Origin: an uncultured Acidobacteriota bacterium
GTDB lineage: Bacteria; Acidobacteriota; Vicinamibacteria; Vicinamibacterales; CAVVIG01
Direction of reading: 5' to 3'
Assembly: GCA_963792785.1 (NCBI GenBank)
Contig: CAWBXO010000001.1
Coordinates: 531,336-595,335 of the forward strand
DNA: 64,000 nt
The translations under genes were made by a program, and so were the position numbers. The notes beneath the pieces are model-generated. The model was not told the origin of the DNA. It searched no databases and worked only from the letters and a program-made list of their open reading frames with translations. This document shows positions 40,610 to 60,348 of this stretch, in pieces (position 1 is the stretch's first letter; each line of letters starts with the position of its first letter).

Positions 40610-41674
40610 CTAGTGCCGCGGCGTCAGCCTCTCGACCGCGGCGGGAAGATCCGTATCGTCCGGACCGACGATCTCGACCAGACGACCGTCCGCCCCGATC
40701 AGCGCCACAGCCGGAAGACGCCGAATGCCGAACACGCGAAACGCCTGTCCGTCGCTGTCGACAGCCATTGGCACACGCGGCTTCATTCGCGCTTCATACG
40801 AAGCGAGACCTTTCGGCGTCGTCCAGAGATGCGCCACAACGCCAAGCCAGCCGATCGCGGGAGCCCGTGACAGCTCAGCGACCTGTTCGCGAACGCGGCG
40901 GCACGCCTCGACCGTCTTCGGCTCGGTGTCCTTCAGATAACTTTCGCACCACACCGACGTAAACACGATCGCGCGGGGCCGCTCCGTGGCGCCGCGCGCG
41001 AACCGCACCGGCCCATCGCTGGCGCCTCGCAGGTCAAGATCCGGCACGAGATCGCCCGGCTTCAGCGTCTGGAGGGTTGGGACGTTCGCCGTTTCGATCC
41101 GTGTGCGCGTCGTGTCGTCTGCAAGCACCCGCCGAATGGCCGCATCGAGCTGCGGGCCGTCCTGATGCCCGGCATACGCAATCCGGCCATCGCGGCCGAT
41201 CAGCACGTGAAATGGCGTGGCCTCCATCTTGAGCCAGGCACCGAGGCTTCCGTCATCAATCGCGACCGGCATGCGCAGCTTCGCCTGGCTCACGAACGCT
41301 CGGACCTTGGCGACATCGTCGCCGATACCTGCGTCGATGGCCACGATCTGCATGCGATCACCGAACGTCTCGTAGATCTTCTCGAACCCCGGCATCTGGG
41401 CCCGGCACGGGATGCAGTAGGTGGCCCAGAGCTTGAGGTAGACCGGCTTGCGACCGTAGTTGTCCACGATATTGATCGTGCCGCCGTCGATCGCCCGTAA
41501 GTTCATCGAAGGAGCGGGCATGCCGACCAGACGTGCGAGCTCCGGATCTTCGGCGATGTATCCAGAGTCGCCGGGTTTGGCCGCTGGATACTTCTGGCGC
41601 TGACCGGCAGCACTCGCCATGCTGCCGATGATGCAGAGGCAGATCCAGGGAAAGGCAATATATCGATTCTGCAT
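40610..41674 (-). CDS. Exported tandem TlpA/redoxin-domain protein
   Basis: Signal peptide; domain 1 KLWATYCIPC (CxxC); domain 2 SVWCESYL...EAC; FGIRRLP. Confidence 0.8.
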   Translation of the reverse strand: MQNRYIAFPWICLCIIGSMASAAGQRQKYPAAKPGDSGYIAEDPELARLVGMPAPSMNLRAIDGGTINIVDNYGRKPVYLKLWATYCIPCRAQMPGFEKIYETFGDRMQIVAIDAGIGDDVAKVRAFVSQAKLRMPVAIDDGSLGAWLKMEATPFHVLIGRDGRIAYAGHQDGPQLDAAIRRVLADDTTRTRIETANVPTLQTLKPGDLVPDLDLRGASDGPVRFARGATERPRAIVFTSVWCESYLKDTEPKTVEACRRVREQVAELSRAPAIGWLGVVAHLWTTPKGLASYEARMKPRVPMAVDSDGQAFRVFGIRRLPAVALIGADGRLVEIVGPDDTDLPAAVERLTPRH

Positions 41675-41689
41675 AAGAGAATGCGCCTG

Positions 41690-41734
41690 AGCGTATCAAG
41701 TCCGGTCTCATGCGTTGTGTTGCAGTATGTTGCG
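41690..41734 (-). promoter_or_regulatory. Candidate third copy of island regulator box plus -10
   Basis: CGCAAC-ATAC-TGCAAC-N23-TACGCT upstream of the redoxin gene. Confidence 0.45.
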
Positions 41735-41821
41735 GATTCGCGGTGCGGGGATCGCATCCTGGCGCGCGGCTGTGGGGTGTAGAATCGAGCCGAGCGAATG
41801 GCATTACACGTCAGACTGTTT

Positions 41822-42289
41822 ATGAAGCGCGCCCTGATGCTCGCGTTGTTTGTTGGGTTGCAGACCGTGGCGTCTCCAGCGCGGGCGGCGGAACCGCTGG
41901 TTGGACTCTGGCGCCTGCAGCTCCAGGAGATCAACGGCCAACAGGGCAACGCCGAGCCCATGGCTTTGCAGATTTCCCAAGCTGGGGACAAGTTGACGTT
42001 CGCATTTTCCGTGCCCATGCCCGACATCTACTTCGTGACCACCACGTATACGCTGCGCCTGGACGGTTCCAGCGCCAACATCGTGAACGGAAACGATCAG
42101 GTCATCGGAACCATCCAGATGACGCGCGGAATTGCCGGCCAGTACACCCTGACGATGAAGGGCCCAAACATGCCGGACGCCCAGGGGACGCTCACCGTCT
42201 CCGCTGACGGGAAGACCCTCACCAGCGAATCCACTGCCACCCGGTCAGGCCGCACCGTCCATTCCAAGCAAACCTTCACACGCGATTGA
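41822..42289 (+). CDS. Exported hypothetical protein (lipocalin-like beta barrel possible)
   Basis: Signal peptide ...ARA-AE; LVGLWRL and TVSADGKTLT patterns. Confidence 0.65.
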   Translation: MKRALMLALFVGLQTVASPARAAEPLVGLWRLQLQEINGQQGNAEPMALQISQAGDKLTFAFSVPMPDIYFVTTTYTLRLDGSSANIVNGNDQVIGTIQMTRGIAGQYTLTMKGPNMPDAQGTLTVSADGKTLTSESTATRSGRTVHSKQTFTRD

Positions 42290-43434
42290 GCCTTCTTCGA
42301 CGTTACGTTCGCCGACCGCAAACTCTCTTTCTCCGGCGGGCGATTTTCGGAGTGCATTTGTTCGTGGGCATCGTCGCCGGGCTTTACCTCTCGATCATGG
42401 GGGTGACCGGATCGCTGTTGGTGTTTCGTCCAGAGCTCAACGCCCTTCACCTTCCGAAACAGTGGCGCGCCCTGAGAACATCGTCGCCGGTCAACCCCGG
42501 TGCGGTTGTCGCGCGTCTTCACGCAGACTATCCGGCCGTCAGAATCGTCTCCCTCGAGGCGCCGAGCGCCTTCAATCCCACTTTCGTCGCGACGCTTTCA
42601 GGGGCAGGGCGTACTGTCGTCGCGTGCGATCCCACCACCGGGGTGGTGCTGGGGCCGGTGCCGCCGGCCGCTGCGTGGCTGACCTTCGTGCGCAGGCTGC
42701 ACGAAACGCTGCTGATCGGCGGGAGCGGTCGCACGTGGAATGGGGTCGGGGCAGCCCTTCTCCTCCTGCTTGCGGCGACCGGGTTGGGGAACTGGTGGCC
42801 AGGGGTACGCAACTGGCGGCGCGCTCTTCGAGTGGGCCTCCGATTTGGCTGGCGCCGAATCAATTTCGACCTGCACCGGGCGGCCGGCTTCTGGGCGCTC
42901 CTGCTACTCACGTCTTGGGCGGTCAGCGGAATCTATTTCGCGTGGACGCGTCCGGTCTTTGCGCTGGTCAACTCGTGGTCGCCGATCGTCTCGGCCCGCC
43001 CTCCGGCGGTCGTCGCGACGCCGAGCCCGAACGCCTCTCCGCCGGACCTGAACGCTCTGATTGCGCGCGCGTCCGCGATCGATCCGGGCACTCGCTGGAG
43101 CGGGATCTTCTTCCCCTTCAGCAATCGGGCTCCGCTTGAGATCATCATGCGTCGCACCGGCGGTACGGGCCGTGAATACGAGGATACCGTCTACTTCAAT
43201 CCGTACACCGGCGAGCATCTCGCAACGTGGCGATACGGCGTGAACGAGAGCCTCGGAGATTGGTTTGTCTGGCTGCAGATCCCGCTACACTTCGGCACCT
43301 CCTGGGGGCTGCCCATCCAAGTGATCTGGGCCGCCGCCGGGCTGGTGCTTCCGCTGCTCGCGATCACGGGATTGGTGATGTACTGGAACCGCGTACTGAG
43401 ACACAGACTGAAGCGGTGGCGCCGCGCACAGTGA
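42286..43434 (+). CDS. PepSY-associated TM helix domain protein
   Basis: HLFVG...TGSLLVF, LHETLL, DLHRAAG, LHFG, ITGLVMYW; TTG start overlapping upstream stop. Confidence 0.88.
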   Translation: MSLLRRYVRRPQTLFLRRAIFGVHLFVGIVAGLYLSIMGVTGSLLVFRPELNALHLPKQWRALRTSSPVNPGAVVARLHADYPAVRIVSLEAPSAFNPTFVATLSGAGRTVVACDPTTGVVLGPVPPAAAWLTFVRRLHETLLIGGSGRTWNGVGAALLLLLAATGLGNWWPGVRNWRRALRVGLRFGWRRINFDLHRAAGFWALLLLTSWAVSGIYFAWTRPVFALVNSWSPIVSARPPAVVATPSPNASPPDLNALIARASAIDPGTRWSGIFFPFSNRAPLEIIMRRTGGTGREYEDTVYFNPYTGEHLATWRYGVNESLGDWFVWLQIPLHFGTSWGLPIQVIWAAAGLVLPLLAITGLVMYWNRVLRHRLKRWRRAQ

Positions 43435-43537
43435 CGATAGGGCCCATTCGTCCCGCACGTCGACACAATCCTGATCGAAAGTGAGTAGAGGTGAACGACG
43501 CACGTCGCGCGCCCCTACTCACGCTAGCCCGTCGACG

Positions 43538-43946
43538 CTACCAGGACAGATGCTTCGATACGGCCAGGCCCTTCGGGACGAACGACACTGATGCCGACCG
43601 TCCGTGCCGCGTACCAAGAAACAGCAACGCGCCACCTGCTGCGACCACCGCCGCCCCCCCACCGACAAGGTTGGGATTCGAGGTCTTGCTCACGTCAGCC
43701 GGCGTGACGTACCTTTCCATCCGACGTGTGCAGCAGTCCCCACAGCGTCATTCCCATGCCTACGGCGACCAGGCCCCCGCCCGACCACACCATGCCACTG
43801 TGGCTGGTCGTGCCCGCGGGCTGCTGCAACGCCTGCGCCTGCGCCTTCGCCACCCTCTCGACGCTCGCGCCAAAATCATCCGCGAACGCGGATCCCGCCA
43901 GCCCCAGGATGCAGGCGGCAGCCACTACGACTTGTGCCGGTTTCAT
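43538..43946 (-). CDS. Exported/membrane hypothetical protein, apparent +1 frameshift near 43712
   Basis: ORFs 43695-43946 and 43538-43720 join into signal peptide plus two Gly-rich hydrophobic segments ending in Trp if one G in AAGGTAC is removed. Confidence 0.55.
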
Positions 43947-43963
43947 GTGTCTCGTCCTCCCGG

Positions 43964-46729
43964 TCAGAATCGAATCTTGGCGCCGAGCATGGCGCGGCGT
44001 GGATAGGTGAACGACGAGGGCGCGCCGAATGCACTGGAGGTGCCGAGCATCGAAATGATGCCCTCCGCCGTGTCGGCGTTCGTGAGGTTCAGGATGTCCG
44101 CGAACAGATCGGCCTGCAATCCGGCGTTATTGAGCCTGAACGACTTCTGCAGACGCATGTCCACGAGATTGAGGCTGGCCACACGCCGGCTACCGTCCAG
44201 CGGCTCCACGTCGATCGTCGGAGAAGAGGCGAACCCGAGACCGGATACGCGGATCTGGCGGGCCCAGGGACGACCCGTCTGATGCTGAATGTTCGTCGAC
44301 ACCAGAATGCCGTACGGGAGCTGGTACAGGAACTGAACCTTCGCCACGACCGGACGATCCCCAATCAGCCGACCGTCGGTGTTGACCAAGTCGTTTGGGC
44401 CGTCTGGAAATCGGCCGAACGAGCGCGGTATCTCCTCCTGGCCAGACGTGGGCGAGCGGTTGCTCGACGGGAGTCGGCCAGTGGACTTCGACAGGACCAG
44501 CGAGAAGGTGCCCTGCCACCGGTTTGCCATCCGCTTGGTCAACACGAACGTCGCGCCCTGATAGCGAGTGTACAGGCCGGGCAAGTTCGTCATGGAGAAG
44601 ACGCTTTGGCTGACGGGCGTGAGCAACTTGTAGACCATGACCGTCGAGCCCGTCGCCTCCGCACCGGTTGAGTCGACGTAGGGCACTTGCGCGTCCTGCC
44701 CGGTCGTGTCGGCCCACCCGGGATAATCGTGCCCGCGCTTGTACACGTAGTTCACCTGGAGACCGAGATTCGGAATCAGTTGCTGTTCCAGCTGAACAAT
44801 GACTTGATCGTTATACGGGGCGCGGTAATTCGGGTCCACCTGGAGCTGCAGGCTGCTGCTCGTCGTCTGGAATTTGGATCGATTCCCGGCGGCGTCAACG
44901 TTGAACGTGGAGACCGGCGTCACGCCAGGCGCAACGGCGCTGAAATCCGAAAGCAGCGGGCCGCGATAGTCCCGCCCGTAGTGCGCCTTCACGACAGTAT
45001 TGCTGTCGCTGTCGACCTGCCAGTTCACGCCGACGCGCGGAGACACGGCCTTCCAATTGAACAGATGTCCGCTGTCCTGAGTGAACGCGCCGGTCTCATT
45101 CGAGTTGGCGTCGAGGACGGGCATGGCCTGGAACTTGCCGTAACTGTAGTCGTACCGGATACCCAGATTCAGCGTGACCCGGTCGAGGCGGTACGTATCG
45201 TCCACGTAGGTGCCCACCGAACCGATGAGGCCGGGCGAGTGGTATGGGAGTTGGGTGGTTCCGGTCGACTGCTGACCCGTCACACTGAAGATGTCGATGG
45301 TGTCGTTGTTGTACGTCACCGAGTCCTGGCCGCCATCGTTGTACTGCAGGCCGAACTTCAGGTCGTGGCTCCCGCCCCCGAAGTCATCGACGTACTTGCC
45401 AATCTTGACCGACGTGCCCCTGCGCCACGACTTCGATGAGTTGAACCCCGAGACGCCCCCCGTGACGACGCCCGTGTCGTTGTCGGTGACCTGCGGAGTG
45501 CCAGGCACCTGTCCCGGGATGAACGGAGAATTGGCGTTCTTGGCAAAGTCCCCGGAGTACCGGGCTTCCAGGAACATCGACGACGACATGGTGTACATGT
45601 ACACGAAATTCGGCGTTGGGTTGTCGCCGTGCCCAGACGAGAGCGTGCTCAACGCCACCAGCGGGTTGCTGGTGTTGGGGGGCAGCGCCCAGTAGTCGTC
45701 GTGCATGCCGTGCATGATCCGCTGCTTCGGCGTAATCTGGTAGGTCAGTTTATAGAACAGCCGCTTGGCAATGGATGGCGTCGCCGCGGAGGGCGCGAAT
45801 CCGGTCGATGCGAAGGTGTCATCCTGGTCCTGATACAATCCAAAGAACCAGAACTTGTCCCGGATCATCGGACCAGACAACTGCCACGTCGTGTCGGTAA
45901 ACTTCTTCCGGTAATACGGAAAACCGCCGTCTTGTGCGTCAGTCGTGTTGCGGCCCGTCAAGGCGTTGGGCTGGACGTACAGATTTCCGTCTCCGTGAAA
46001 CAGATTCCCCCCCTCGCGGGTGACGATGTTGAAGACGGCCCCCTCGACGTTTCCGTACTCCGCGGACGCCCCCAGTTGGAGGACCTCCACTTGTTCCACG
46101 GCATCCGTGTTGGGCCACGCCCATCCTCCACCGTTCCCAGGAGCAGAAATATCAGTGCCGTCGAGGAGATACGAGTTGGCATTCACGCTGCTGCCCATCG
46201 ACTGCGCGTTGGTCGTCCCTCCCGACGTGGACGTCGACTGGCTGACACCGGGCGCCGAGTTAATCAAGTCAAAAAAGGAGAACCGTCTGACGGGAGCGCT
46301 CTCCACCCACTGCTTGTCGTAGTTGGTACTCACCTGAGAACTCGACACACTGACTAAGGGCGTCGCGCCCGTGACAGTAATGTTTTCCTCAAGAGTGCTC
46401 ACACTCAGGGCGATCGGCAGGGTCACCGTCCCGCCGACCCCGACGGTGATGCCGGCACGAGTGACGGTGGAAAAGCCGCTCAGCGTTGCTTCCACGCTGT
46501 AGGTGCCAGGCGAAAGGTTGGGGAACCGGTAGTTTCCAGTGCCGGACGTGACGTCGACGGTTCCCGCGGAGGGAAGGGTCGCGCCATGGAGTGTCACTGT
46601 CACGCCGGGCAGCACGCCGCCAGACGAGTCGGCTACCGTCCCGACAATTTCGCCGGTGGTTCGCTGTGCATGCGCCGGGGACGCAACCAGCAGCGCCACC
46701 GCACAAATGGCCGCCACAAAGACCTTCAT
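43964..46729 (-). CDS. TonB-dependent receptor (Oar-like, carboxypeptidase-regulatory N-domain)
   Basis: GTVADSSGGVLPGVTVT, ASAEYG plug motif, TLNLGIRYD, SPRVG, C-terminal LGAKIRF. Confidence 0.92.
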   Translation of the reverse strand: MKVFVAAICAVALLVASPAHAQRTTGEIVGTVADSSGGVLPGVTVTLHGATLPSAGTVDVTSGTGNYRFPNLSPGTYSVEATLSGFSTVTRAGITVGVGGTVTLPIALSVSTLEENITVTGATPLVSVSSSQVSTNYDKQWVESAPVRRFSFFDLINSAPGVSQSTSTSGGTTNAQSMGSSVNANSYLLDGTDISAPGNGGGWAWPNTDAVEQVEVLQLGASAEYGNVEGAVFNIVTREGGNLFHGDGNLYVQPNALTGRNTTDAQDGGFPYYRKKFTDTTWQLSGPMIRDKFWFFGLYQDQDDTFASTGFAPSAATPSIAKRLFYKLTYQITPKQRIMHGMHDDYWALPPNTSNPLVALSTLSSGHGDNPTPNFVYMYTMSSSMFLEARYSGDFAKNANSPFIPGQVPGTPQVTDNDTGVVTGGVSGFNSSKSWRRGTSVKIGKYVDDFGGGSHDLKFGLQYNDGGQDSVTYNNDTIDIFSVTGQQSTGTTQLPYHSPGLIGSVGTYVDDTYRLDRVTLNLGIRYDYSYGKFQAMPVLDANSNETGAFTQDSGHLFNWKAVSPRVGVNWQVDSDSNTVVKAHYGRDYRGPLLSDFSAVAPGVTPVSTFNVDAAGNRSKFQTTSSSLQLQVDPNYRAPYNDQVIVQLEQQLIPNLGLQVNYVYKRGHDYPGWADTTGQDAQVPYVDSTGAEATGSTVMVYKLLTPVSQSVFSMTNLPGLYTRYQGATFVLTKRMANRWQGTFSLVLSKSTGRLPSSNRSPTSGQEEIPRSFGRFPDGPNDLVNTDGRLIGDRPVVAKVQFLYQLPYGILVSTNIQHQTGRPWARQIRVSGLGFASSPTIDVEPLDGSRRVASLNLVDMRLQKSFRLNNAGLQADLFADILNLTNADTAEGIISMLGTSSAFGAPSSFTYPRRAMLGAKIRF

Positions 46730-46825
46730 CGCTCAACACCCTCCCACCGAAAACACTCCGCAAACCAGAGGCGCCTGGTTCCGCGCCGGGTCGGCTCGAG
46801 GAGTTCCCAGTTAAGCCGCGCAGGA

Positions 46826-46871
46826 CTACCTTAGGGCAACAGCGGTTACGCAGACGTTGCAAGTTGTGGCA
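46826..46871 (-). promoter_or_regulatory. Regulator box plus -10 of TonB-dependent receptor
   Basis: TGCCAC-AACT-TGCAAC-N21-CTAAGGTAG; same blocks and spacing as at 56488-56533. Confidence 0.7.
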
Positions 46872-46956
46872 GGGAGGCGACAGAAATGGGCGCCGATCCA
46901 CCGCTCCGGCGCTTTGCGGGGTGGCCTAGGGAGAAAGCGACCGGAATCCGGAGTGT

Positions 46957-47652
46957 TCAGGACTCCGATTCGTTGAAGGTCAGGCAGTAGCCGTCGCCGT
47001 GAACAGTATGAATGAACTCAGGAACATGAGGATCTGGCTCGACCTTGGCGCGCAGCCGTTTGACCGCGTAGTCCACGGCCCGGGTGGTCGGCTCGTCGGG
47101 AAATCCCCAGACTTCGCGCAGCAGTTCGGAACGGTGCACGACCCGGCCCCTCCGCTCGGCCAGATAGGACAGCAAATCGAATTCCCGCCGCGTGAGGTGA
47201 ATCTTTCCGGAGCCACCGGTCGCCGTCAGGGCCCTGAAGTCGACAGTCACCCGACCGAGACGCAGCCTCTCGACCATGCTCCTGGCTCGGCGAAGAACCA
47301 CCAGGATGCGTGCCCTGAGTTCATCGAAGTCAAAGGGTTTCGTAATGTAGTCGTCGGCGCCGGCCTCGAGGCCCCGCAGCTTGTCGGCCTTCTCATTGCG
47401 CACGGTGAGCATGATGACCGGTGTGGAGCCTCCCCGACTGATGAGACGGCACAACTCAACACCGTCCCATCCCGGCAGCACCACATCGAGCAACACGAGG
47501 TCCGGCGCCGACGCGCGCACAGACTTGAGAGCGGACTGTCCGTCCCCGGCGCGTTCTATCTCGAAGCCGGCGAACGTCAGATTGTCGGCCAGCACCCGCG
47601 CCAGAGCGGCATCGTCCTCGACGACAAGAATCCGTTTCCTGTGCGCGGCCAC
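46957..47652 (-). CDS. OmpR/PhoB-family response regulator
   Basis: ILVVEDD, DLVLLDVVLP, GADDYITKPF, wHTH LTRREFDLL...TVHGDGY. Confidence 0.95.
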   Translation of the reverse strand: MAAHRKRILVVEDDAALARVLADNLTFAGFEIERAGDGQSALKSVRASAPDLVLLDVVLPGWDGVELCRLISRGGSTPVIMLTVRNEKADKLRGLEAGADDYITKPFDFDELRARILVVLRRARSMVERLRLGRVTVDFRALTATGGSGKIHLTRREFDLLSYLAERRGRVVHRSELLREVWGFPDEPTTRAVDYAVKRLRAKVEPDPHVPEFIHTVHGDGYCLTFNESES

Positions 47653-47697
47653 GGCGCTGCGATGCTACCACGCCCGGTGGCGGGAAAATCACAGGGT

Positions 47698-49215
47698 TCA
47701 CGGTCGAATTGACGAGCTGGATTCCTCGTCTCGGACCAGCACCTGATGCGCCATCAGCACGGAAAGCCCCGCCAGCAGTTCGCGTGGCGCGGCCTCGCCC
47801 ACGGCGTTCCGATAGGCATCTACGAGTCCCTGCAGATCCCGCACATGCGGCACCAACCGGATCAATTCCGGCAGGTTCACGCCTGCTGCGAATCGAATGG
47901 GAAAACCGATGCGGGGCACGACAATGGCCTCCCGCAAGAGCACCTCATGACCTTCAATCGACGGGACAGGCTCGAATCGGAGCCCCTCGCTCGGGCGCAG
48001 CCGCAAAGCGGGAGCGTCACGGAGATTCGCGAACGCCGTCCGGACCCTCCCGTCGCGAGCAAGCTGGCTGTCCGTGATCTCGTGACCGAAGCCTTCGGGC
48101 ACGTCGGGCCCTGCACTCGCGCGGCGGTCCCAGAACGCGTGCCCGTGTTCGACACTCGCAGCTTCGAAAAATCCGGCCGCCTGGCGGCGGCACGCCGCAT
48201 AGACGATCCGCTCCCGCTGATTGTAGAAATCGGTGGCCGCACCCGCCATCTCCGGCTTGCCGAGGGAGGTATGCGCGACAACGGCCGCTCGCCATGCCGA
48301 GAGCAGCGCCTTCCTGATACCGCCGGACGACAGGGGATCGATGAAGGATGCGGCGTCCCCGACGAGAAGAAGCCCTGAGTCCGCGGCGCGTTCCACGTCG
48401 TACGGTGATGCGTCGCACGCCCATGGGCGCGTGACCTGTCTCGCGCGCTTCAGATGCCGGGTCATGGCTGTCGCCTTCTCCAGGTGCCGCGCGTAGACGA
48501 ACCTCAAGTCCGTCTTCCCGTCGGCGCGACTGGGCTCAACCATCACCGTGCACTGACGGCGGCTGGCAGACAAGGGCACCGACCAGGCCCATCCGTCGCG
48601 GTAGCTCTCCACGAAGGTATGCGAGACCTCACTGGCCGGCCACTCTCCCTGGCCGTCCCACTCCGCCACGATGGCCAGCGTCCGGTATCCGCCCGTTTGA
48701 CGCCGGAAGCCGTTCCGAGCGGCGACGCCTGCGCGCCCGGAGCAGTCGAGCACGCATCGTGCCTGGTAGGTCGCTCGGTTGCCGGACCGGCGATGACACG
48801 CGACGTGAAACGGGCCGGAGCCGGTGACATTCTGGACCCGGCCGAGGACGAGGGAGGCGCCCGACCGTCGGGCAAAACGCCGCAGAACGCGGTCGAATGC
48901 CGGGCGGGGCACGTGGTAGCCGTGCGTGTCGGTCGTGGTCGTGGTCCGACGCCCAGCCCAGGCCGACACATTCCCGTCGTTCGGATGGAAGCCGGCCGCC
49001 TCTATCAGTTCACTCTGCCCAAGAAACTCGAACAGCTTCCGGGTCCCGGCCGGGAGCGACTCCGCGAGGCAAGGGCCCCGTGCCTCGTCGTGAAGAAGCG
49101 CGACGGACCAGTCCCAGGAAGCCAGGAGACCGGCGGCGGTTGCGCCGGCTGGACCTCCCCCAATCACCAGCACGTCGACCGTTCCCGGAGGCTCCGTCCC
49201 GCGTCGCGCTGTCAC
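47698..49215 (-). CDS. qhpG: FAD-dependent monooxygenase, QhpG-like (CTQ biogenesis)
   Basis: VIGGGPAG, DCSGR, GWAW, GDAASFIDPLSSGG; coupled to qhp operon. Confidence 0.8.
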   Translation of the reverse strand: MTARRGTEPPGTVDVLVIGGGPAGATAAGLLASWDWSVALLHDEARGPCLAESLPAGTRKLFEFLGQSELIEAAGFHPNDGNVSAWAGRRTTTTTDTHGYHVPRPAFDRVLRRFARRSGASLVLGRVQNVTGSGPFHVACHRRSGNRATYQARCVLDCSGRAGVAARNGFRRQTGGYRTLAIVAEWDGQGEWPASEVSHTFVESYRDGWAWSVPLSASRRQCTVMVEPSRADGKTDLRFVYARHLEKATAMTRHLKRARQVTRPWACDASPYDVERAADSGLLLVGDAASFIDPLSSGGIRKALLSAWRAAVVAHTSLGKPEMAGAATDFYNQRERIVYAACRRQAAGFFEAASVEHGHAFWDRRASAGPDVPEGFGHEITDSQLARDGRVRTAFANLRDAPALRLRPSEGLRFEPVPSIEGHEVLLREAIVVPRIGFPIRFAAGVNLPELIRLVPHVRDLQGLVDAYRNAVGEAAPRELLAGLSVLMAHQVLVRDEESSSSIRP

Positions 49216-52011: not shown

Positions 52012-53456
52012 AGGACTGCCTCCGCCCTGGCTTCGTCTCGATCAAATCGAGCCAGGAAACTAGGATTTCGTTCTGACAGCTCACCATATACCTGCAGGCA
52101 CGTGTCGGTCCAGCCACGAATCCAATCGCAGTAATGCAGGTTCGGCCGTTCGGTCGAGCCGTACCGCACGTAGGCCTCATGGTAGCACCCGCCCGAGCAC
52201 AGGGGCCGGGCCCAGCAGACGCTGCAGTCGGTCTTGTCGGCAATCTGGTGCGTCTCGAGAAATGCGGCCTGGGTCTCGCGGTCAATCCCGTCGCGCACCG
52301 TGCCGAACTTGTGCGTATCCGAGCCGGCGAACCGGTGGCACAGGGCCACGTCCCCCTCGGTCGACACGCCGAGCAGTCCGAGTCCGGCTCCGCAGGGATA
52401 CGCCTTGCTGACCCCCTTGTGAATCTCTTCCAGGGTGTCCTTGATATTCGAGAACCCGTGATGCTGGTTGCGGACCGCCGCCTCCTGGAAGTCACGCGCG
52501 AGGGCGCGAAACTGTTCCAGCATCCGATCGAATCCTCGCTCGCCAATGGCGTACTGCAGCGTTGGGGACGTCGTCACCGGGGCAAACCCGACTTCCCAGA
52601 ATCCGATTTCATCGGTGAGATGCTGGTAGATGCGCGAGACGTCGAGGGTGTCCGACGTGAGGGTGACCCGAGCGCCGATGGGCCGGCTCCGATGGCGACG
52701 AAGCAACTCCTTGATCTTGGGCAGCACGACATCGTAGCTGCCCTCGCCGTTGTGGAAGACGCGGAACTTGTCCTGCATCTCGCGCGGGCCGTCGATCGAA
52801 ATCGTGACGCCCACCTCGTTCTCGGCGAGGAATTCGATGATCTCCGGACGAAGGAGCGTCGCGTTGGTGGTCAGGCTGAAATCGATTAGCTTGCCGCACT
52901 CGGCCGCACGCCGGCGCCCGTACGCGATGGTCTTCTCGAGCACGGGAAAGTTCAGCAGCGTCTCACCGCCGAAGAACGTCAGGTGCGCGATCTGACCGCT
53001 TTCCCTCAACAGGAATTCAACACTTTCACGCGCCGTCTCCTCGCTCATGAACTTGGCCTGCTTGCCGTGCGCCGTGTCCACGATCTTGTCTTCGCCGTAC
53101 TCATAGCAGTACGTGCACGCGAGGTTGCACTGATTGGTGACGTTCAAGACCATCGTGCTCAGCGGGAACGACGTCACCGGCAGCATACGCGGCGCCACGG
53201 GCTCCGGTTGGTGCTCATAGCCTACAGCGCGAACATCGAGCAGATCGGCCAGCGCCCCCTTGATCACCTCGGGCGGGAACCGGTCCGCGAGGGCGGCCAC
53301 CAACTCGGTCTCGGATCGCGGGGCTTCGACGACCGCCTCCAGCGTCGCCGCCGAGGGATCATCCAGCGCGAAAATCGCCGCGCTCGGCACCAGGTAGACG
53401 AAGCTCCGGCCCCCAGCCTGAAAGTGATGGAACTCCCTCGGCACCAGCGCGATCAT
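52008..53456 (-). CDS. qhpD: Radical SAM/SPASM thioether-forming maturase
   Basis: N-terminal PqqD/RRE-like domain; CNLACTYC; FFGGETLL; SPASM CGAG...C...CSVCWARPLCSGGC. Confidence 0.93.
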   Translation of the reverse strand: MIALVPREFHHFQAGGRSFVYLVPSAAIFALDDPSAATLEAVVEAPRSETELVAALADRFPPEVIKGALADLLDVRAVGYEHQPEPVAPRMLPVTSFPLSTMVLNVTNQCNLACTYCYEYGEDKIVDTAHGKQAKFMSEETARESVEFLLRESGQIAHLTFFGGETLLNFPVLEKTIAYGRRRAAECGKLIDFSLTTNATLLRPEIIEFLAENEVGVTISIDGPREMQDKFRVFHNGEGSYDVVLPKIKELLRRHRSRPIGARVTLTSDTLDVSRIYQHLTDEIGFWEVGFAPVTTSPTLQYAIGERGFDRMLEQFRALARDFQEAAVRNQHHGFSNIKDTLEEIHKGVSKAYPCGAGLGLLGVSTEGDVALCHRFAGSDTHKFGTVRDGIDRETQAAFLETHQIADKTDCSVCWARPLCSGGCYHEAYVRYGSTERPNLHYCDWIRGWTDTCLQVYGELSERNPSFLARFDRDEARAEAVL

Positions 53457-55264
53457 CGGCCCGTCTCCTCGGGGAGCCACCGGATGTACAGAGGCGGACT
53501 CACCAACAGATGAGCACGGGCTTTGAGCGGCGGCGCGGCCGGCGTCCCCCCGCCCGGGTTCTGAAGATACGTCGCCACCGCCCACACATCGCCGATATTG
53601 TCGGTCCCATTTCGACGCTTCGGGTTCGGTCCCTCGATGTTCGGCGTGAACAGGCCTGTGACTTCATCGATGGCACCGACGAAGTCCTTGTCGTCGTCGT
53701 GGTACGTCGCGGTGTACTCTTCGATGCTCCATGTCACGTCGACAGGGCCGAGCTCGATGTCGTCGGCCGTACCAGGCTGCTTGTCGGGCCCGTTCGCATA
53801 CGCGTGCGCCTCGAACTGCTGGAACTGCTTCGGGACGGTGACGCCGCCCACGCGAGCGAGGCCGGACTCCGGTAGCACTTTGATGAAATCGACCGTCGAG
53901 TACACCGCGATGGTGGCCTCGCCGGTCGCGCCCGCCAACAGAACCGTGCGGCGACCTGGTGCGGCATCCGTAGCCACCGAAATCGACACGACCACCTGAT
54001 CAGCCGTCGTGCTCGTCACCCTATCGACGGTCACGCCTGGACCGAGGCTCAGATCGGCCGGAGCCACGCTCGCGGGCAAGTTGGCACCGAACAGGTGCAG
54101 TTCCTGGCCGGAACTGCCAGCCTGGACCATCGGCTGGGCCACGCCAAGCACGACGGGATCGGACCCGAGGCGTTGAAGGTCGACGTCCACACCGAACTCG
54201 TCCTGCGCGCCCGCGAACCATCGGCCGCTCGCATGCCGCCAATCCTTGTCGATGAACAGCACCTCTCGCCAGTCGCTCGGAGCGTCGGACGCCGGCGTCG
54301 ACAGCTGCGTCGCCGGTGTTGCTCCGGGGTCGGAAGACCGCCCTCGCCACTGGAACCCGGTGTACACAATCGCGCGCCCCTGCCGCGTGACCGCCCGGCC
54401 GGTCCGCGCATAGGTGAGAGTCGTCTCGGTGGTGAACTCGGCGCTGGCGGCGTCACCGGACGGCCGGATGGTCACCACACCGAACACAGGCCCCTTGCCC
54501 GCCTGATCGCCCTTGAACGCCCATCGACCTTCGAGTCGAGGCGGGCGCATCGTGGCGGACCAGGCGTCCCAGGCCGGCGTCCTCAGCGGAAAGGCCTTGG
54601 ACAGTTCGTCGATCGCCTTGTCCATCGGCTGTCGAGTGTCCCGGGGCGCCGCGTCGTCACCCTGCCCGCCGGAACCCCTCCCCCCGCCCAGGAACACCTG
54701 CGAATCCGCCAAGGGGTAGTAACCCCGGTGCATCGCGACCAGGAGGCCCCATTCGTCCTTCGTTCGGCGCTGCGAAATGACCCGGCCCATCGAATGACAG
54801 GCACTGCACGTCTGCTCGGTGGCCTTGTCGCTGTAGTGGTATTCAATCATCCGGTGCTCGACTTCGAAGTCCGCCGGCTTCGCCTCCTCGGGCGCCAAGC
54901 CTTGATGATCTGCCAGATACCGCACGACAGCCCGCGCCTCCTCTGGCTCGATGTTCAGCCCGTTCAGGCTGATCATGCGCTTCACCGTCTCTTCCCAGCC
55001 CTCAGGCGTCATCCGGACCGTGGAGATTCGACTCAGTCGCCCCTGATCGTCAGGTCGATGGCAGGTGCCGCATTTCCGCGTGACGGTACTGTCCGCGATT
55101 GGAAACCCCTCATCTTCGGGCTTCGTGTCCGCTTTCACAGCGGCCTGCCCCCCCGCGGCGGATCCGCGCTGGGCCGACGCCGGGGCCGACGCGAGCAAGA
55201 TAGCGAGGCCGAGCGCCCATCCCAGGCGCTCCACGTGTTGCAGGCGATGGTGTCTCAGGAGCAC
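53453..55264 (-). CDS. qhpA: QHNDH alpha subunit (diheme c)
   Basis: Signal peptide; CGTCH and CSACH; RMTPEGWE, GFQWRG, LARVGG, GPNPKR; start uncertain. Confidence 0.92.
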   Translation of the reverse strand: MLLRHHRLQHVERLGWALGLAILLASAPASAQRGSAAGGQAAVKADTKPEDEGFPIADSTVTRKCGTCHRPDDQGRLSRISTVRMTPEGWEETVKRMISLNGLNIEPEEARAVVRYLADHQGLAPEEAKPADFEVEHRMIEYHYSDKATEQTCSACHSMGRVISQRRTKDEWGLLVAMHRGYYPLADSQVFLGGGRGSGGQGDDAAPRDTRQPMDKAIDELSKAFPLRTPAWDAWSATMRPPRLEGRWAFKGDQAGKGPVFGVVTIRPSGDAASAEFTTETTLTYARTGRAVTRQGRAIVYTGFQWRGRSSDPGATPATQLSTPASDAPSDWREVLFIDKDWRHASGRWFAGAQDEFGVDVDLQRLGSDPVVLGVAQPMVQAGSSGQELHLFGANLPASVAPADLSLGPGVTVDRVTSTTADQVVVSISVATDAAPGRRTVLLAGATGEATIAVYSTVDFIKVLPESGLARVGGVTVPKQFQQFEAHAYANGPDKQPGTADDIELGPVDVTWSIEEYTATYHDDDKDFVGAIDEVTGLFTPNIEGPNPKRRNGTDNIGDVWAVATYLQNPGGGTPAAPPLKARAHLLVSPPLYIRWLPEETGR

Positions 55265-55286
55265 GGTCAGATCCTATTCGCGATTA

Positions 55287-56441
55287 CTAACGCGGGGCGC
55301 CGGCCCCGCGCGCAGCTCGAGCGGGCACGACATGAAACGAGCTGTAGGGCATATCCGTGTCCATGGTGATCGTGCGGAGATACTTGAAATCCGAAGTGTC
55401 GTACAGATCGATCGTGCGGCCCGCCTCGTAGATGTAGAGCACCTGGCCGCTGGTGCTGACCTGGATGGCCATCCGAGGCCGGCCGTCGAAGGAAATTTTC
55501 TTCTCCACTTTCCCACCGTCGATATCCACCAGCCACATCTGATAGTCGTCGATCGCCTGCGCGAGGATGTAGCCTCGCTTGTGGTCTGGCGACACCGCGA
55601 AGCTCAGGCGAAGATCGTCTGGCGCCGGGCCAATCGGCACAAAGTCGACCGAACGCTTCGTGAGGTCAATTCGTCCCACGCCCACGATTCGCCTGTTCGC
55701 AACGGGATCCTGGACCGTGAACAGGGCCGTGAAGTAGGCCGGATCCTCGTACGCATCCTCCTGCGACCCGAGACTCCCCGAGCCCATGCCTGGCTCGATC
55801 GGGAGAGACATGTCCCAGTGATCGACCTGCGTCAGCGTCGAGGCGTCGAGAATGAGGATGTCCCGGCCGAACACGTACAGCAGTTTGCCATCCGGCGAGA
55901 ACCGCAGGTTGAATCTGGTGGTGCCCGGTCCGTCCGGCGGGGGAACCGTCTTGACGACCTGATGCGTCGTCAGATCGTACAGCACGAGTTGTGTCGGCTC
56001 GATTTCAAAGCGATCGATCAGCTTCTTAACCGGCTGAATCCCCACCGCCATGAAATGCTGTTGGGGGTCGACTGCGTACCCTCGAACGCGAACCTTCGCG
56101 CCCGGCTCGCTGAGCGCGAAGGTGTCGACGCTCTGTTTCTTTTCAACGTCGACCACCTCGAAGTGCTCCATGTCCCAATTGAGCGCGTACAGCCGGGTCG
56201 CGTCGCTCGACACCTGGACCTGATAGGGAACGCCTGTCGTCAGGTGAATCGACGCGACCTTCTCCGTCGCTTCGTCGATGGCCAGAATGTCGCCGGTGTA
56301 CGCGCCGACATACAATGTCCCGTCGCCGAGGACGACCTTCGGCGGCGCTCCGGCACCCGTAACCATCCAGGCGACCAGCAAGAGGCCACTAGCGCGGACA
56401 GTCTTCATGAGCCACGTCGCACGACGCGTCGCTACATCCAC
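55287..56441 (-). CDS. qhpB: QHNDH beta subunit-like beta-propeller
   Basis: Signal peptide; YVTN-like blades (FSPDGKLLYV, VSPDHKRGY, STSGQVLYI); first gene of operon; start GTG 56441 or ATG 56408. Confidence 0.75.
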   Translation of the reverse strand: MDVATRRATWLMKTVRASGLLLVAWMVTGAGAPPKVVLGDGTLYVGAYTGDILAIDEATEKVASIHLTTGVPYQVQVSSDATRLYALNWDMEHFEVVDVEKKQSVDTFALSEPGAKVRVRGYAVDPQQHFMAVGIQPVKKLIDRFEIEPTQLVLYDLTTHQVVKTVPPPDGPGTTRFNLRFSPDGKLLYVFGRDILILDASTLTQVDHWDMSLPIEPGMGSGSLGSQEDAYEDPAYFTALFTVQDPVANRRIVGVGRIDLTKRSVDFVPIGPAPDDLRLSFAVSPDHKRGYILAQAIDDYQMWLVDIDGGKVEKKISFDGRPRMAIQVSTSGQVLYIYEAGRTIDLYDTSDFKYLRTITMDTDMPYSSFHVVPARAARGAGAPR

Positions 56442-56487
56442 CGCTTCCCCTCTTTCGTTCAGGCTCAGGGCGCCCATGTAATCTCGT

Positions 56488-56533
56488 CTACCTTAGACGA
56501 CTGCGCATCCCTTCGAAGTTGCAAATTGTGGCA
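56488..56533 (-). promoter_or_regulatory. Regulator box plus -10 of qhp operon
   Basis: TGCCAC-AATT-TGCAAC-N21-CTAAGGTAG. Confidence 0.7.
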
Positions 56534-56634
56534 TATCGCCGCGGCCCTCTTCTTGTTGGCCTACCATCAGGCGGGACGTCATTTTCCGCTTCCGCGCGCT
56601 CGAGAGAGACTGACCTGGGACATACTGACACACT

Positions 56635-57661
56635 GTGGAGACCACGACACGCAACGGTCTGCGTACACCCCGTCCCTCGGACATCGACACGCCGACATCC
56701 CTGTCGGTTCGGCTCTGGACGGTCGTCGTGGCGGCAGCGTTGGGGCTTGGCGCCGGCTGCACCACGCCCCAGCCGACACCGCCGACGACCCTGACCATTG
56801 GGACCGGGTGGGAAGACGGGGTGTGGGGTATCGTGGGCCAGGCGCTCGCGGATCAGGTACCGCCGCCATCTTCCAAACACCGCCGTCTCCAGCCGGCCCC
56901 TCTCGGACCTCGAGTTCAAAGTCGACGCCCTGGAGCGCGGCGACCTGGATTTGGCGTTGGTCGATTCCGAAACGGCTTATCGGGCGTACGAGACGGGCAC
57001 GGACGCCAACCCGTCGCCGCACACGAAGCTCCGCGCCATTTCGGTGCTCTTCCCCACGGTCGTGCAGATTGTCGTCCGGCGCGACGCCGAGATCACCTCG
57101 ATCGCGCAACTCCGCGGAAAGCATCTGGACGTCGGGCCCAAAGGCGGCTACGCCGACGAGGCCGCCCGACTCATTCTCGACAGCTACGGGCTGAGTTACT
57201 CCAGCGTCCATGTTTCGTTCGATGCGACGCCTCGCCCCGAGCAAGCGCTCCGCGACCACGAACTCGACGCGGTCGCGTTCTGGATGCCCCTGCACCATCC
57301 ATCGATCACTCGCGTCGTGAACGCGCTCCCGACCGATGTGCTCCCTCTGGATCGGGAGCACATCGGCATCCTTCAAAGCCACAGTCATTTCTTGAAGTCC
57401 ACGATCATTCAGGCCGGCACGTACCCCAATCAGACAAGCGACGTGCTGACCGTCGGTGAGGATGTGTTGCTCCTTTGCCGGCAGGGCCTGCCGGAAGCCC
57501 TCGTTCGCACGCTGACCCAGATCCTCTTCGACGCGGCGCCAGAACTGCAGCGCGCGCACCCGGCGGCCGCGAGCCTCGACGTGAGCAGCGGGCCCACGGC
57601 CTCCATCCCTCTGCATCCTGGCGCAGCTCGCTATTACCGCGAGCGGGAGCTGTTGAAGTGA
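56635..57661 (+). CDS. TAXI-family solute-binding lipoprotein, apparent +1 frameshift near 56857
   Basis: Lipobox LGAGC; LTIGTG..DGVW; KLRAI..LFP..VQIVVR; I.AGTYPNQ; IPLHPGAARYYRE. Confidence 0.82.
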
Positions 57662-57698
57662 CCTCGGCTCCCCGCCCCGGCGCCGACTTCCGCGTGCA

Positions 57699-59396
57699 AT
57701 GAAGCGGCTTCTTTTCCGCTGGACGAAGGGTGGGCCGGCGCTGATCCTGGCCAGCGGCACGGCGTTGGTGACGCTGTTCACGTTCGGCCTGGGATTCTGG
57801 GCGACACGACAGTGGAGGGACAGTACCGCCCAGGCCGCACAGACCCGCGGCGAAGAGGCCGTCGCCCTCCTCGCAGAGGCTCTGCAGCGGGACATGAAGG
57901 GCGGACAGACATCGGTGCTCCTGCCGATCAACCGTCCCCTTCTCGAGGAGGCTACGCTGTATGATCTGGCCGACGAGTTCGCGAGGGGCTTCGCCAGGTT
58001 CCCCTACCTCGAGTCGTTCTTTGTCTGGAGACGCTCGGAGGACTCCGCTTCCACTTACTTCTTCAGCCGCGCTGATCGGATGCCACCCTGGGACAGCGGG
58101 GAGACGATTGGCGACCCGTACCCTGTCGTCATTCGGCGGAATCCTGCGCCCATGCTGCCGGTCCTGACGCAAGTACATCAGGAAACGGCGCACTACACTC
58201 CTTTCGCCGCATCCAGCTTTTCTTCCTCTGGCTCCAGCTACCAGGTGTTCGTCCAACGCTTCTATGACGGGCGTCCGCCAGACAGCCAGATGACCGCGCT
58301 CATCGGCTTTACCGTGAACCTCGCTTGGGTCCGACAACACTATTTCGGCGACTTCATCGAGCAGATGCACGGGATCATCGGCGACCGCACGATTGGGATT
58401 CGTATCGTTGATCAGGATGGCTCGATCATCGCGGCCTCCGGCCCCCCGATCACTGTCGCCCCCATCCATACCCGCCGCTTTCCGCTCGCCTTCATCGATC
58501 GCGCCCTCATTCCAGGCCCAGACGCGCCTGCGGTGCCACAATGGGCCGTGCAGGTGGACGTCACGAACCAGGTGGCGCTGTCCGCCGCTGGCATCGGCAC
58601 GTTCTGGACGCTGACCCTGCTGGGTATCGCCGCCCTCATGACCTTCTCCGGCCTCGCCCTCACCGTGCGGTCGACGAACGCTGCCGCCGACCTCGCAGCC
58701 TCGCACGCCGAGTTCGTCTCGACAGTGACCCATGAGATGAAGACCCCGCTCTCTCTCATTCGTCTTGCCAGCAAGACGCTGGCGACGGGACGCTACGAGT
58801 CCGCGGAGGCAACCATCGCAGATTATGGCCGACTCCTGACCACCGAAGCCGGTCGACTGACGCGACTCATCGACAACGTGCTGTGCTTTGCCAGATTCAC
58901 CAACGCGGCCTCCCCGTACCACTTCGAGCGCGTGGACGTCTCGGAACTCATCCAGGAGTGCGTCGGTCGCTTCAAGCCTGAGCTCGATCTCGCCGGCTTC
59001 GAAATCACGACGAATCTGCCGGTGGAGAGCCTCGAGATTCGCGCCGACCGGGTGCTCATGCTCCAGGTCTTTGACAACCTTATTGACAACGCGGCCACAC
59101 ACGCCGCGCCGGGCCGCGTGCTGACTCTCACGGTCACACACCGAGACGCAGCCATCCACATCACCTTTTGTGACGCCGGCCCGGGGATTGCGCCAACAGA
59201 CCTGCCCCATGTCTTTGACAAGTTCTACCGCGGGGGCAATGCGCGGCACCGTGGCAGCGGCCTTGGCCTGGCGATCGTGCTGCGCATCGTGACGGATCAC
59301 GGCGGGCGTGTCACCGTCCAGAGCGTGGAAGGCCGAGGCGCGACGTTCGAAGTAGTGCTGCCGGAGTGGAACGACACGTTACTGGATGATGCCTGA
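57699..59396 (+). CDS. Membrane sensor histidine kinase
   Basis: Two TMs around ~270-aa periplasmic domain; VTHEMKTPL H-box; NLIDNA, DAGPGI, FDKFYRG, GSGLGL. Confidence 0.95.
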   Translation: MKRLLFRWTKGGPALILASGTALVTLFTFGLGFWATRQWRDSTAQAAQTRGEEAVALLAEALQRDMKGGQTSVLLPINRPLLEEATLYDLADEFARGFARFPYLESFFVWRRSEDSASTYFFSRADRMPPWDSGETIGDPYPVVIRRNPAPMLPVLTQVHQETAHYTPFAASSFSSSGSSYQVFVQRFYDGRPPDSQMTALIGFTVNLAWVRQHYFGDFIEQMHGIIGDRTIGIRIVDQDGSIIAASGPPITVAPIHTRRFPLAFIDRALIPGPDAPAVPQWAVQVDVTNQVALSAAGIGTFWTLTLLGIAALMTFSGLALTVRSTNAAADLAASHAEFVSTVTHEMKTPLSLIRLASKTLATGRYESAEATIADYGRLLTTEAGRLTRLIDNVLCFARFTNAASPYHFERVDVSELIQECVGRFKPELDLAGFEITTNLPVESLEIRADRVLMLQVFDNLIDNAATHAAPGRVLTLTVTHRDAAIHITFCDAGPGIAPTDLPHVFDKFYRGGNARHRGSGLGLAIVLRIVTDHGGRVTVQSVEGRGATFEVVLPEWNDTLLDDA

Positions 59397-59442
59397 CCGA
59401 CCCGCGTGCGCCGCGATCCGAGTCAGGACGGAGGAATCGACC

Positions 59443-60348
59443 ATGACTGCCAGGCTCAGACAGACTTGCGTTTGCGTGGCCGCGACCGTTGCGTGCGGCT
59501 CCGTCATCCTCCACGCCCAGCAGGACCGCTCCCTCGCCGGCAGCATTCGCATCGCCAACCACTACCGCGTCGCGGCCGATGTGACGTACCTGACCGTCGG
59601 CGGCGTCGCAGACACACTCGATGTGTATCAGTCGCGAGACGCGCGGACGCCGCGCCCGACGCTAATCTTTATTCACGGCGGCAACTGGGTCGGCGGGAGC
59701 AAGACGGCCAGCTCCCTCATGATCCTGCCCTTCCTCGACATGGGCTGGAATGTCGTCAACATCGATTACCGGCTGCTGCGCACCGCACCGGCGCCGGCCG
59801 GAGCGGACGACTGCTTCTGCGCGCTGCGCTGGGTCTACCAGCACGCGAGGGACTACAACATCGACACGTCGCGGCTCGTCGTGAGCGGGAACTCGGCCGG
59901 TGGACAGCTCGCGCTGCTTCTCGCCATGGCGCCGCCCACGGCCGGCTTCGGCGCCGACTGTCCTGGCCCGGAGGCGCTCTCCGTGTCCGGCGTCATCAAT
60001 TGGTACGGTTTCTCGGATCTCGTGGATCTCCTCGAGGGCCCCGACGCCCGCCCCGCCGTCCAAGCGTGGATCGGAGACGGGCCGAACCGCGCACAACTGG
60101 CCCGCCGTCTATCGCCAGCAACCTACGTCAGAAAGGACAACCCGCCGATTCTGACGATTCAGGGAGACGCGGACCCAACTTCCCCGTACCCGTACTCGGT
60201 TCACCTGCACGAAGAACTGCGCAAGGCAGGCGTGCCCAACCAACTGCTGACGATCCCGGGCGGGAAGCACGGCGGCTTTACCGACGAGGAGACCGACACG
60301 ATCTACCTGACAATCCAGCAGTTTCTGAGCGCACACAATCTGCGGTGA
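59443..60348 (+). CDS. Exported alpha/beta hydrolase (HSL/BD-FAE-like)
   Basis: GGAGG SD; signal peptide; HGG, GNSAGG nucleophile elbow, GDAD, GKHG. Confidence 0.88.
   Translation: MTARLRQTCVCVAATVACGSVILHAQQDRSLAGSIRIANHYRVAADVTYLTVGGVADTLDVYQSRDARTPRPTLIFIHGGNWVGGSKTASSLMILPFLDMGWNVVNIDYRLLRTAPAPAGADDCFCALRWVYQHARDYNIDTSRLVVSGNSAGGQLALLLAMAPPTAGFGADCPGPEALSVSGVINWYGFSDLVDLLEGPDARPAVQAWIGDGPNRAQLARRLSPATYVRKDNPPILTIQGDADPTSPYPYSVHLHEELRKAGVPNQLLTIPGGKHGGFTDEETDTIYLTIQQFLSAHNLR

Follow-up and report, generated by a model that had tools for sequence, protein, structure and literature searches.

A stretch of 64,000 nucleotides (the window) from the genome of an uncultured bacterium of the order Vicinamibacterales, phylum Acidobacteriota, contains a genomic island that brings together three types of function. 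It carries the qhp genes of a quinohaemoprotein amine dehydrogenase (QHNDH), a gene for an Oar-like TonB-dependent receptor (TBDR), and genes for a TAXI-type binding protein, a sensor histidine kinase (HK) and an OmpR-family response regulator (RR). We propose that the island is a mobile, self-regulated amine-scavenging unit, in which a canonical QHNDH and the TBDR are jointly controlled by a TAXI-dependent three-component system; the balance of evidence tips slightly towards this interpretation, at a probability of roughly 0.55. The observations behind it include a promoter-like element shared by qhpB and the TBDR gene, the orthology of the RR to regulators linked to TAXI-HK pairs elsewhere, and the recurrence of TBDR orthologues beside qhp in the order.

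Genes were identified with Pfam and NCBIfam scans and tRNAs with ARAGORN. The comparison covered 41 genomes of the order, in which G000 denotes the genome of the window and G001 a congener; qhpD is present in 15 of them and absent from 26. Neighbourhoods within the order were compared at 15 qhp loci from 14 other genomes, and a wider sample of 80 loci of GTDB species, collected with a QhpD alignment, was searched for a TBDR within 10 kb. This wider group consists of Acidobacteriota, chiefly Vicinamibacterales, with Gemmatimonadota more distant. Across the 41 genomes, TBDR orthologues (identity of at least 46%, ranging over 46-91%) were separated from paralogues (39% or less). The features central to the proposal are as follows.

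43695..43946, minus strand: protein of 83 aa, encoded immediately past the TBDR gene and bearing a signal peptide and a hydrophobic C-terminal segment
43964..46729, minus: Oar-like TBDR, with CarboxypepD_reg, Plug and OMP_b-brl_4 domains
46828..46871, minus: promoter-like element before the TBDR gene (TGCCACAAnTTGCAAC, 21 nt, CTAAGGT)
46957..47652, minus: OmpR-family RR, last gene of the qhp operon
47698..49215, minus: qhpG, flavin monooxygenase (NF049967, 233.5 bits against a cut-off of 240)
49212..49934, minus: qhpE, subtilisin-like protease (NF049966, 164.4 bits, cut-off 165)
49937..51646, minus: qhpF, ABC exporter (ABC_membrane and ABC_tran; 57-74% identity to the same-position gene in relatives)
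51676..52011, minus: qhpC, gamma subunit precursor (NF037958, 124.9 bits, cut-off 50)
52008..53585, minus: qhpD, radical SAM/SPASM maturase (TIGR03906, 570 bits, cut-off 453)
53453..55264, minus: qhpA, dihaem alpha subunit (TIGR03908, 457 bits, cut-off 274)
55287..56477, minus: qhpB, beta-propeller subunit (TIGR03907, 69.5 bits, cut-off 223)
56490..56533, minus: promoter-like element before qhpB, identical to the TBDR element in sequence and spacing
56635..57661, plus: TAXI-type binding protein (NMT1_3, 161 bits for 56798-57661), frameshifted near 56858
57699..59396, plus: HK, with HisKA and HATPase_c domains and a periplasmic domain of about 265 aa

A shared promoter-like element and a TAXI-linked regulator

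The spacers in front of qhpB and of the TBDR gene each carry TGCCACAAnTTGCAAC, followed after 21 nt by CTAAGGT and directed at the gene, and the same arrangement is present in G001. Apart from this element the two spacers are unrelated or diverged in both genomes, and its exact 16-mer occurs at only these two sites in each genome. Its geometry is constant, with an invariant spacing from TGCCACAAnTTGCAAC to a TAnnnT box. When genome G020 was searched with the pattern derived from G000 and G001, three exact and five one-mismatch copies were found, all of them on three contigs: those with qhp, with a TAXI-HK-RR set, and a further contig, C100. On the qhp contig, one copy is located 125 nt before qhpD and another before an Oar-like TBDR gene. 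On C100, one copy precedes the gene for a hydrolase of the BD-FAE type and two precede a stretch holding a cupin gene and an orthologue of the redoxin gene of the island. Furthermore, the gap between the RR gene and a TBDR gene in genome G015 contains a copy with two mismatches to the original pattern. We consider it probable that qhp and the TBDR gene are co-regulated. A weak copy of the element with two mismatches (41719..41733, minus strand) lies 45 nt before the ATG of the island's redoxin gene; a search allowing up to three mismatches gave 19 matches against 10.7 expected, and this redoxin copy alone is not significant and is suggestive only.

A sigma-54 promoter, which follows the rule GG-N10-GC, was ruled out for the element on spacing, and the RR is without a sigma-54 domain. 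A simple promoter scan of positions 43400-47800 returned zero promoter-like sites, and the terminator-like sites there were uninformative. The presumed 5' leader of the TBDR gene contains a GC-rich hairpin with a T-rich tract (46770-46787, minus strand), which may represent an attenuator or a chance occurrence.

Among the 41 genomes there are 20 places with a homologue of the TAXI protein, 17 of which have the HK sensor domain encoded in the adjoining gene; no adjacent TRAP membrane component is present in the island. Judged from these sequences, the pairing of TAXI and HK is a family trait across the order. At all three complete closest loci, in G015, G010 and G020, an RR gene follows TAXI-HK, and its product shares 64-67% identity with the RR that closes the qhp operon of the island; RRs at other loci reach only 29-39%. 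The island RR is therefore, as an orthologue of TAXI-HK-linked regulators, the partner of the kinase located at the other end of the operon. The genes that follow the TAXI-HK-RR module in other genera encode an Oar-like TBDR together with a gamma-glutamyltranspeptidase, as well as a flavin amine oxidase. Its vicinity in G020 also holds genes for an M20 peptidase and a further gamma-glutamyltranspeptidase, and OPT proteins are among its neighbours too. It is somewhat likely that this module is the regulator of qhp and the TBDR gene.

The sensor domain of the kinase has no named family in Pfam, and an Atlas look-up gave unnamed clusters only. A predicted complex between the G001 TAXI protein and the kinase periplasmic domain scored 0.37, compared with 0.01 for the best of three controls; the runs agree in at least 79% of contacts and the partner has a pLDDT (predicted local distance difference test) of at least 88. 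Of 80 solved complexes, 58 reached the mark used for these scores, as did 2 of 110 mismatched pairs; scores of 0.60 or below include only 7 of the 80 solved complexes and both of the passing mismatches. The model thus offers weak support for the binding of TAXI to the periplasmic domain of the kinase. Outside the window, the same genome has a further TAXI-kinase pair, paralogous to that of the island at 27-33% identity (G000:C1:1143105-1145077).

The receptor and its association with qhp

The TBDR has a signal peptide, a CarboxypepD_reg domain, a plug and a large barrel, and its C-terminal residue is Phe. Its linkage to qhp, proposed in the sequence-only reading of the window, recurs within the order: an orthologue adjoins qhp in 7 of the 15 qhp-bearing genomes. 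Orthologues are present in 8 of 15 genomes with qhpD, compared with 2 of 26 without it, and in G015 and G018 the TBDR gene is inside the operon, on the same strand, in the stretch from qhpG to qhpA. The wider sample has an adjacent orthologue at 2 of 80 loci, L051 and L068. A tree of QhpD places the window and G001 in a nine-row clade (Shimodaira-Hasegawa-like approximate likelihood ratio test, SH-aLRT, 100), which includes L051, G019 and G020 and of which five rows are TBDR-linked; a second TBDR-linked group makes up four rows of an 11-row clade.

The true gene after the TBDR gene is the 83-aa open reading frame (ORF) at 43695-43946, and a homologue of it follows the TBDR orthologue at 6 of 12 orthologue loci (L034, L051, L043, L048, L037 and L042), one of which is without qhp. 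The clusters of G015, G018, L051 and L068 have the order G-TBDR-small-A-D-C-B, with a TBDR of the same orthogroup (49-57% identity) and the small protein where it was detected. In those clusters the TBDR gene is within the operon and the core is A-D-C-B, whereas on the island it comes after the RR gene under its own copy of the element, with TAXI-HK at one end of the operon and the RR at the other. These associations are consistent with a role for the TBDR in importing the QHNDH substrate or its precursor, to which we give a little less than even odds.

Several observations weigh against the island being a unit of this type. The TBDR orthologue is missing from 7 of the 15 qhp-bearing genomes of the order and was not found within 10 kb at 78 of the 80 wider loci; the importer is therefore dispensable for QHNDH in general. 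Orthologues in G025, G027 and G036 are located away from qhp. The TAXI-HK-RR module is a general one, present as well in G010, G016 and other genomes that have no qhp, and a linkage of TAXI, HK and the hydrolase specifically to qhp is not supported. In the present assembly the N-terminus of the TAXI protein (signal peptide and first strand, 56635 to about 56858) is in another frame, a +1 frameshift relative to the intact 346-aa copy in G001, and the sensor may therefore be broken here; split tblastn matches in qhpB and the hydrolase gene of G001 make long-read indel errors a live alternative to real pseudogenes. Some G020 copies of the element have no clear gene downstream, and the element might instead represent a promoter for a sigma factor or be bound by a different regulator. 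The pattern was widened after the G020 copies had been seen, and its one-mismatch matches are no commoner than those of a reversed-pattern control (for example, 3 against 7 in G000), so that only exact and clustered matches count. The BD-FAE hydrolase of G020 is only 26% identical to that of the window. The island has no gene for an electron acceptor, an aldehyde dehydrogenase or an inner-membrane transporter.

Some of these points, together with others, would fit a mosaic island, in which an ordinary qhp operon travels with unrelated passengers, the TBDR, the small protein and a PepSY_TM protein serve peptides or a metal chelate, and TAXI-HK-RR controls something else. The TBDR orthologues distant from qhp have as neighbours S15, M28 and M14 peptidases, aldehyde dehydrogenase, flavin amine oxidase, a DAO-type oxidase, an amino-acid permease and sulfatase-TPR proteins. 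Oar-like TBDRs are also very numerous, with 14 to 292 first-look candidates per genome, the PepSY_TM protein has no close orthologue beyond the genus, and the redoxin was not found in G001. However, the element before qhpB and the TBDR gene is unique to those sites in both genomes, and in G020 it ties qhpD to the TAXI-HK-RR contig. The embedding of the TBDR gene in the qhp operons of G015 and G018, and the position of an RR orthologous to TAXI-HK-linked regulators as the closing gene of the qhp operon, also argue against a chance assembly, and we regard the mosaic as unlikely.

The architecture of the TBDR, with CarboxypepD_reg N-terminal to plug and barrel, is that of Oar from Myxococcus xanthus. 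Oar is reported to be required for secretion of the PopC protease (PMC6434023), and a TBDR acting outward or in envelope assembly, for example by releasing the exported hydrolase encoded on the island to the medium, would be in keeping with that role; uptake is what we propose for the island TBDR. Against an outward role, orthology to Oar lacks support and a sequence search of the PDB with the TBDR gave no match; no other TBDR architecture is as frequent in these genomes, and other genera have the TBDR gene inside qhp without a hydrolase gene. Such a role appears very improbable.

The enzyme, a proposed mechanism and known systems

The qhp set is complete and intact, with all seven genes qhpA-G, and it very probably functions as a QHNDH. 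An alignment of QhpC to 1JJU chain C and 1JMX_G shows that the four Cys, the Trp and the Asp/Glu partners are all kept, which we take to be the residues with cross-link and quinone roles in the gamma subunit. QhpA contains four Pfam domains (I-IV) and two CxxCH motifs, QhpF is a full-length ABC exporter, and QhpE and QhpG are marginally below their family cut-offs, by less than 7 bits each. The match of QhpB spans positions 6-328 of 338 in TIGR03907 despite its low score, and its comparison with 1JJU_B gave an E value of 2e-8. This low score is common to all five relatives tested (60-73 bits), including standard-order and Gemmatimonadota ones, and qhpB is 38-48% identical to the B-position gene in relatives. 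A variant enzyme of different specificity, as originally suggested for this locus, is not supported, given the canonical QhpC and a weak QhpB score that is lineage-wide.

All qhp genes and the RR gene are on the minus strand, and the order of transcription is therefore B-A-D-C-F-E-G-RR, which agrees with the order and the OmpR-type regulator first read from the sequence. The intergenic gaps from qhpB through qhpG to the RR gene are -4 to 45 nt, followed by a gap of 227 nt before the TBDR gene. The start of qhpB is probably Met24, at 56408, and that of qhpD is probably near 53435. Among the 15 loci from the 14 other genomes, only that of G001 has the order B-A-D-C. None of the 80 wider loci is B-first; qhpA directly precedes qhpD in 76 of them, and two have D-C-A-B-F-E-G. 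The idea of a B-first order recurring as a clade trait was discarded, as it is seen only in G000 and G001. Oozeki et al. (2021) describe the arrangement, order and strands of qhp genes as variable, with the operon in more than 1300 species. A 9.7-kb contig of G017 (C335, locus L039, 1587-7183) carries qhpG-D-F-E with 190 nt from D to F and no qhpC, A or B detected; it may be a partial or a second qhp set. At two other loci, tblastn matches to QhpB cross stop codons (four in L052, 5016-6125; one in L055, 11870-12928), which suggests assembly errors in those contigs of metagenome-assembled genomes.

The island set resembles the characterized qhp systems of Paracoccus denitrificans (1JJU/1PBY) and Pseudomonas putida (1JMX/1JMZ) in the completeness of qhpA-G, the gamma cross-link residues, the dihaem four-domain alpha subunit, and the presence of a radical-SAM maturase, a flavin monooxygenase, a subtilisin-like protease and an ABC exporter. 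It differs from them in its gene order, in having no acceptor gene nearby and in its place on a tRNA-linked island. An OmpR-type RR stands in place of the AraC-type QhpR, which is an accessory and not a defining feature; the TBDR is co-located and apparently co-regulated, and the beta subunit is distant from 1JJU_B, as it is in relatives. The selected island ORFs scanned contain no AraC-type domain, separate cytochrome c or cupredoxin, in keeping with the earlier remark that the island lacks an AraC-type regulator and a gene for a soluble acceptor.

A mechanism can be outlined on this basis. The periplasmic TAXI protein would load its ligand and signal through the kinase periplasmic domain to the OmpR-type RR. 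The RR, or a factor acting with it, would then activate two promoters bearing TGCCACAAnTTGCAAC and the TAnnnT box, one serving qhpBADCFEG-RR and the other the Oar-like TBDR with its 83-aa partner. Uptake of a scarce or bulky amino compound through the outer membrane would be the task of the TBDR. QhpD, QhpG, QhpF and QhpE would mature and export QhpC. QhpABC would oxidize the primary amine to an aldehyde and ammonium, with electrons passing through the two haems to an acceptor encoded elsewhere. The exported hydrolase may free the amine from an ester or amide, and the ResA-like redoxin may hold the haem-binding cysteines of QhpA reduced.

A wider and more tentative reading is that, in a Vicinamibacterales-like branch, the TAXI-dependent three-component system drives a dispersed amide-to-amine-to-aldehyde regulon from a single fixed-geometry element, and that in this genus the core of the regulon has been packaged on an island that hops between tRNA sites. 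Its members might include Oar-type importers, exported or periplasmic amidases, acylases and esterases, a dedicated redoxin, and QHNDH.

Binding-protein-dependent two-component sensors include TorT-TorS and LuxP-LuxQ. The island is like them in that a gene for a solute-binding protein directly precedes that of a kinase with a large periplasmic domain; it is unlike them in using a TAXI (NMT1_3) binding protein and a sensor domain without a named family. The module would be a new class of such sensors and, if the wider reading is correct, the first case of a TAXI protein as a kinase co-sensor. A literature search for TAXI proteins linked to histidine kinases gave nothing on this topic by title. 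QHNDH has so far been studied as a stand-alone periplasmic enzyme acting on small, freely diffusing amines. If the wider reading holds, the island would provide the first energized outer-membrane uptake dedicated to a periplasmic amine dehydrogenase; in a search of the library used that paired QHNDH with TonB-dependent uptake, the match examined names QHNDH in its reference list only. The recurrent, apparently co-regulated importer suggests that abundant soil Acidobacteriota scavenge scarce or bulky nitrogen compounds via QHNDH, and the link to amidase-type genes in G020 points towards bound amines as the true substrate pool. Established knowledge of the enzyme is left standing, and the island forms a compact 20-kb unit that could be transferred to a tractable host.

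There is also a resemblance to the Xanthomonas loci for carbohydrate utilization containing TonB-dependent transporters (CUT loci; PMC1790865) and to Sus-like polysaccharide utilization loci, in that an energized importer, periplasmic enzymes and a dedicated sensor are combined in one co-regulated locus. The island differs in having no SusD-like lipoprotein or glycoside hydrolase, and its periplasmic enzyme is an amine dehydrogenase. A SusD-type domain was absent from the scanned island ORFs, and the earlier description of the locus as like a polysaccharide utilization locus does not apply in the strict sense.

Island borders and accessory genes

The island and its remaining genes are listed below. 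All genes named in the sequence-only reading are present, and each was confirmed by domain scans.

40505..40578, plus strand: tRNA-Gly (CCC), from ARAGORN; the island starts directly past its 3' end
40579..60447: genomic island, 19.9 kb, with an empty site in G001 and a shift in G + C content at third codon positions (GC3)
40610..41674, minus: redoxin, exported tandem thioredoxin-fold protein (AhpC-TSA/Redoxin, ResA subfamily match)
41798..42289, plus: exported 163-aa protein (orf41798), without a Pfam or NCBIfam match, beside PepSY_TM in G001 too
42286..43434, plus: PepSY_TM inner-membrane protein (PF03929, 183 bits)
59386..60348, plus: exported BD-FAE alpha/beta serine hydrolase, hormone-sensitive-lipase-like (PF20434, 174.6 bits)

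The segment 40579-60447 is very probably a genomic island that can relocate, with the 3' end of tRNA-Gly as its insertion point. Genes of the island have a GC3 of 0.76-0.84, compared with 0.89-0.95 for flanking genes on both sides, which are housekeeping genes. G001 aligns with the window at 30006-40578 and 60448-64000 (77-83% identity), the first alignment ending at window position 40578. The two are 94 bp apart in G001, and the 19.9 kb between the tRNA-Gly end and a SpoIIE gene is therefore missing there. A homologous block is present on another G001 contig (83% over 12.7 kb, 83% over 4.2 kb and 78% over the orf41798-PepSY pair), so that the part at window 41822-60349 is found again, at 78-83% nucleotide identity, beside a different tRNA. 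Within it, the segment 43535-60349 is inverted relative to the PepSY pair. The block is about 3 kb from tRNA-Lys, and the corresponding site is nearly empty in G000. These clean borders, the empty congener site and the GC3 shift bear out the original description of a single island after tRNA-Gly, and its recurrence in G001 agrees with the view that the genes form one unit. Pfam and NCBIfam scans of island ORFs found no integrase domain, no att-like direct repeats were found for the island, and a search of a plasmid collection with it gave zero matches. Between the island copy and tRNA-Lys in G001 (L132, 2790-4784) are a weak rve integrase-core fragment (E 0.002), an ORF with a LapA domain and a HigB-like toxin ORF. 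The long ORFs 56579-57931 (minus) and 43491-44006 (plus) were rejected as spurious antisense artefacts.

Domain 1 of the redoxin is TlpA/ResA-like with a CIPC motif, and domain 2 is without CxxC. Its orthologues are found in 2 of the 41 genomes, G000 and G020 (75% identity), beside element-bearing genes in both. The only close orthologue of PepSY_TM is in G001 (79%), all others being at 43% or less, and it was dropped as a conserved partner. An Atlas look-up for orf41798 gave unnamed Acidobacteriota clusters only; together, PepSY_TM and orf41798 look like genus-specific passengers. PepSY_TM proteins are commonly tied to TonB-dependent iron uptake, and the best named match of the redoxin is ResA, a reductant in cytochrome c maturation. 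On these grounds the TBDR, PepSY_TM and redoxin could be concerned with the supply or handling of iron or haem for the dihaem subunit QhpA, and not with an amine. This is very improbable, as PepSY_TM does not accompany qhp outside the genus, TBDR orthologues elsewhere are near peptidases and amine or amino-acid enzymes and not iron genes, and NCBIfam siderophore-receptor models match only short plug stretches of the TBDR (23-32 bits against cut-offs of 493-700).

The hydrolase has a signal-peptide-like N-terminus and HGG and GNSAGG motifs, and its gene overlaps the stop codon of the kinase gene. The suggestion that an amide is unmasked before oxidation gains circumstantial support from G020, where the element precedes qhpD and a hydrolase gene and amidase-type genes are near; the step itself is still weakly supported, and it is doubtful that the hydrolase performs it. 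Two Amidase genes are upstream on the G020 qhp contig. The C100 locus (L138, 700-18200) contains a penicillin amidase, the cupin, the redoxin orthologue, the BD-FAE hydrolase, a TBDR start, three Amidohydro_3 genes (one split) and a pyrroloquinoline quinone (PQQ) dehydrogenase, with five copies of the element interspersed.

Just beyond the island, window 60437-63686 encodes a SpoIIE-type phosphatase and another two-component system, made up of a DUF4118 kinase and an OmpR-type RR; all of these genes belong to the core genome and are kept at the empty site of G001. On the other side of the island, a 1321-aa sigma-54 activator is encoded at 26566-30531 (minus strand); its long N-terminal region matches no Pfam family.

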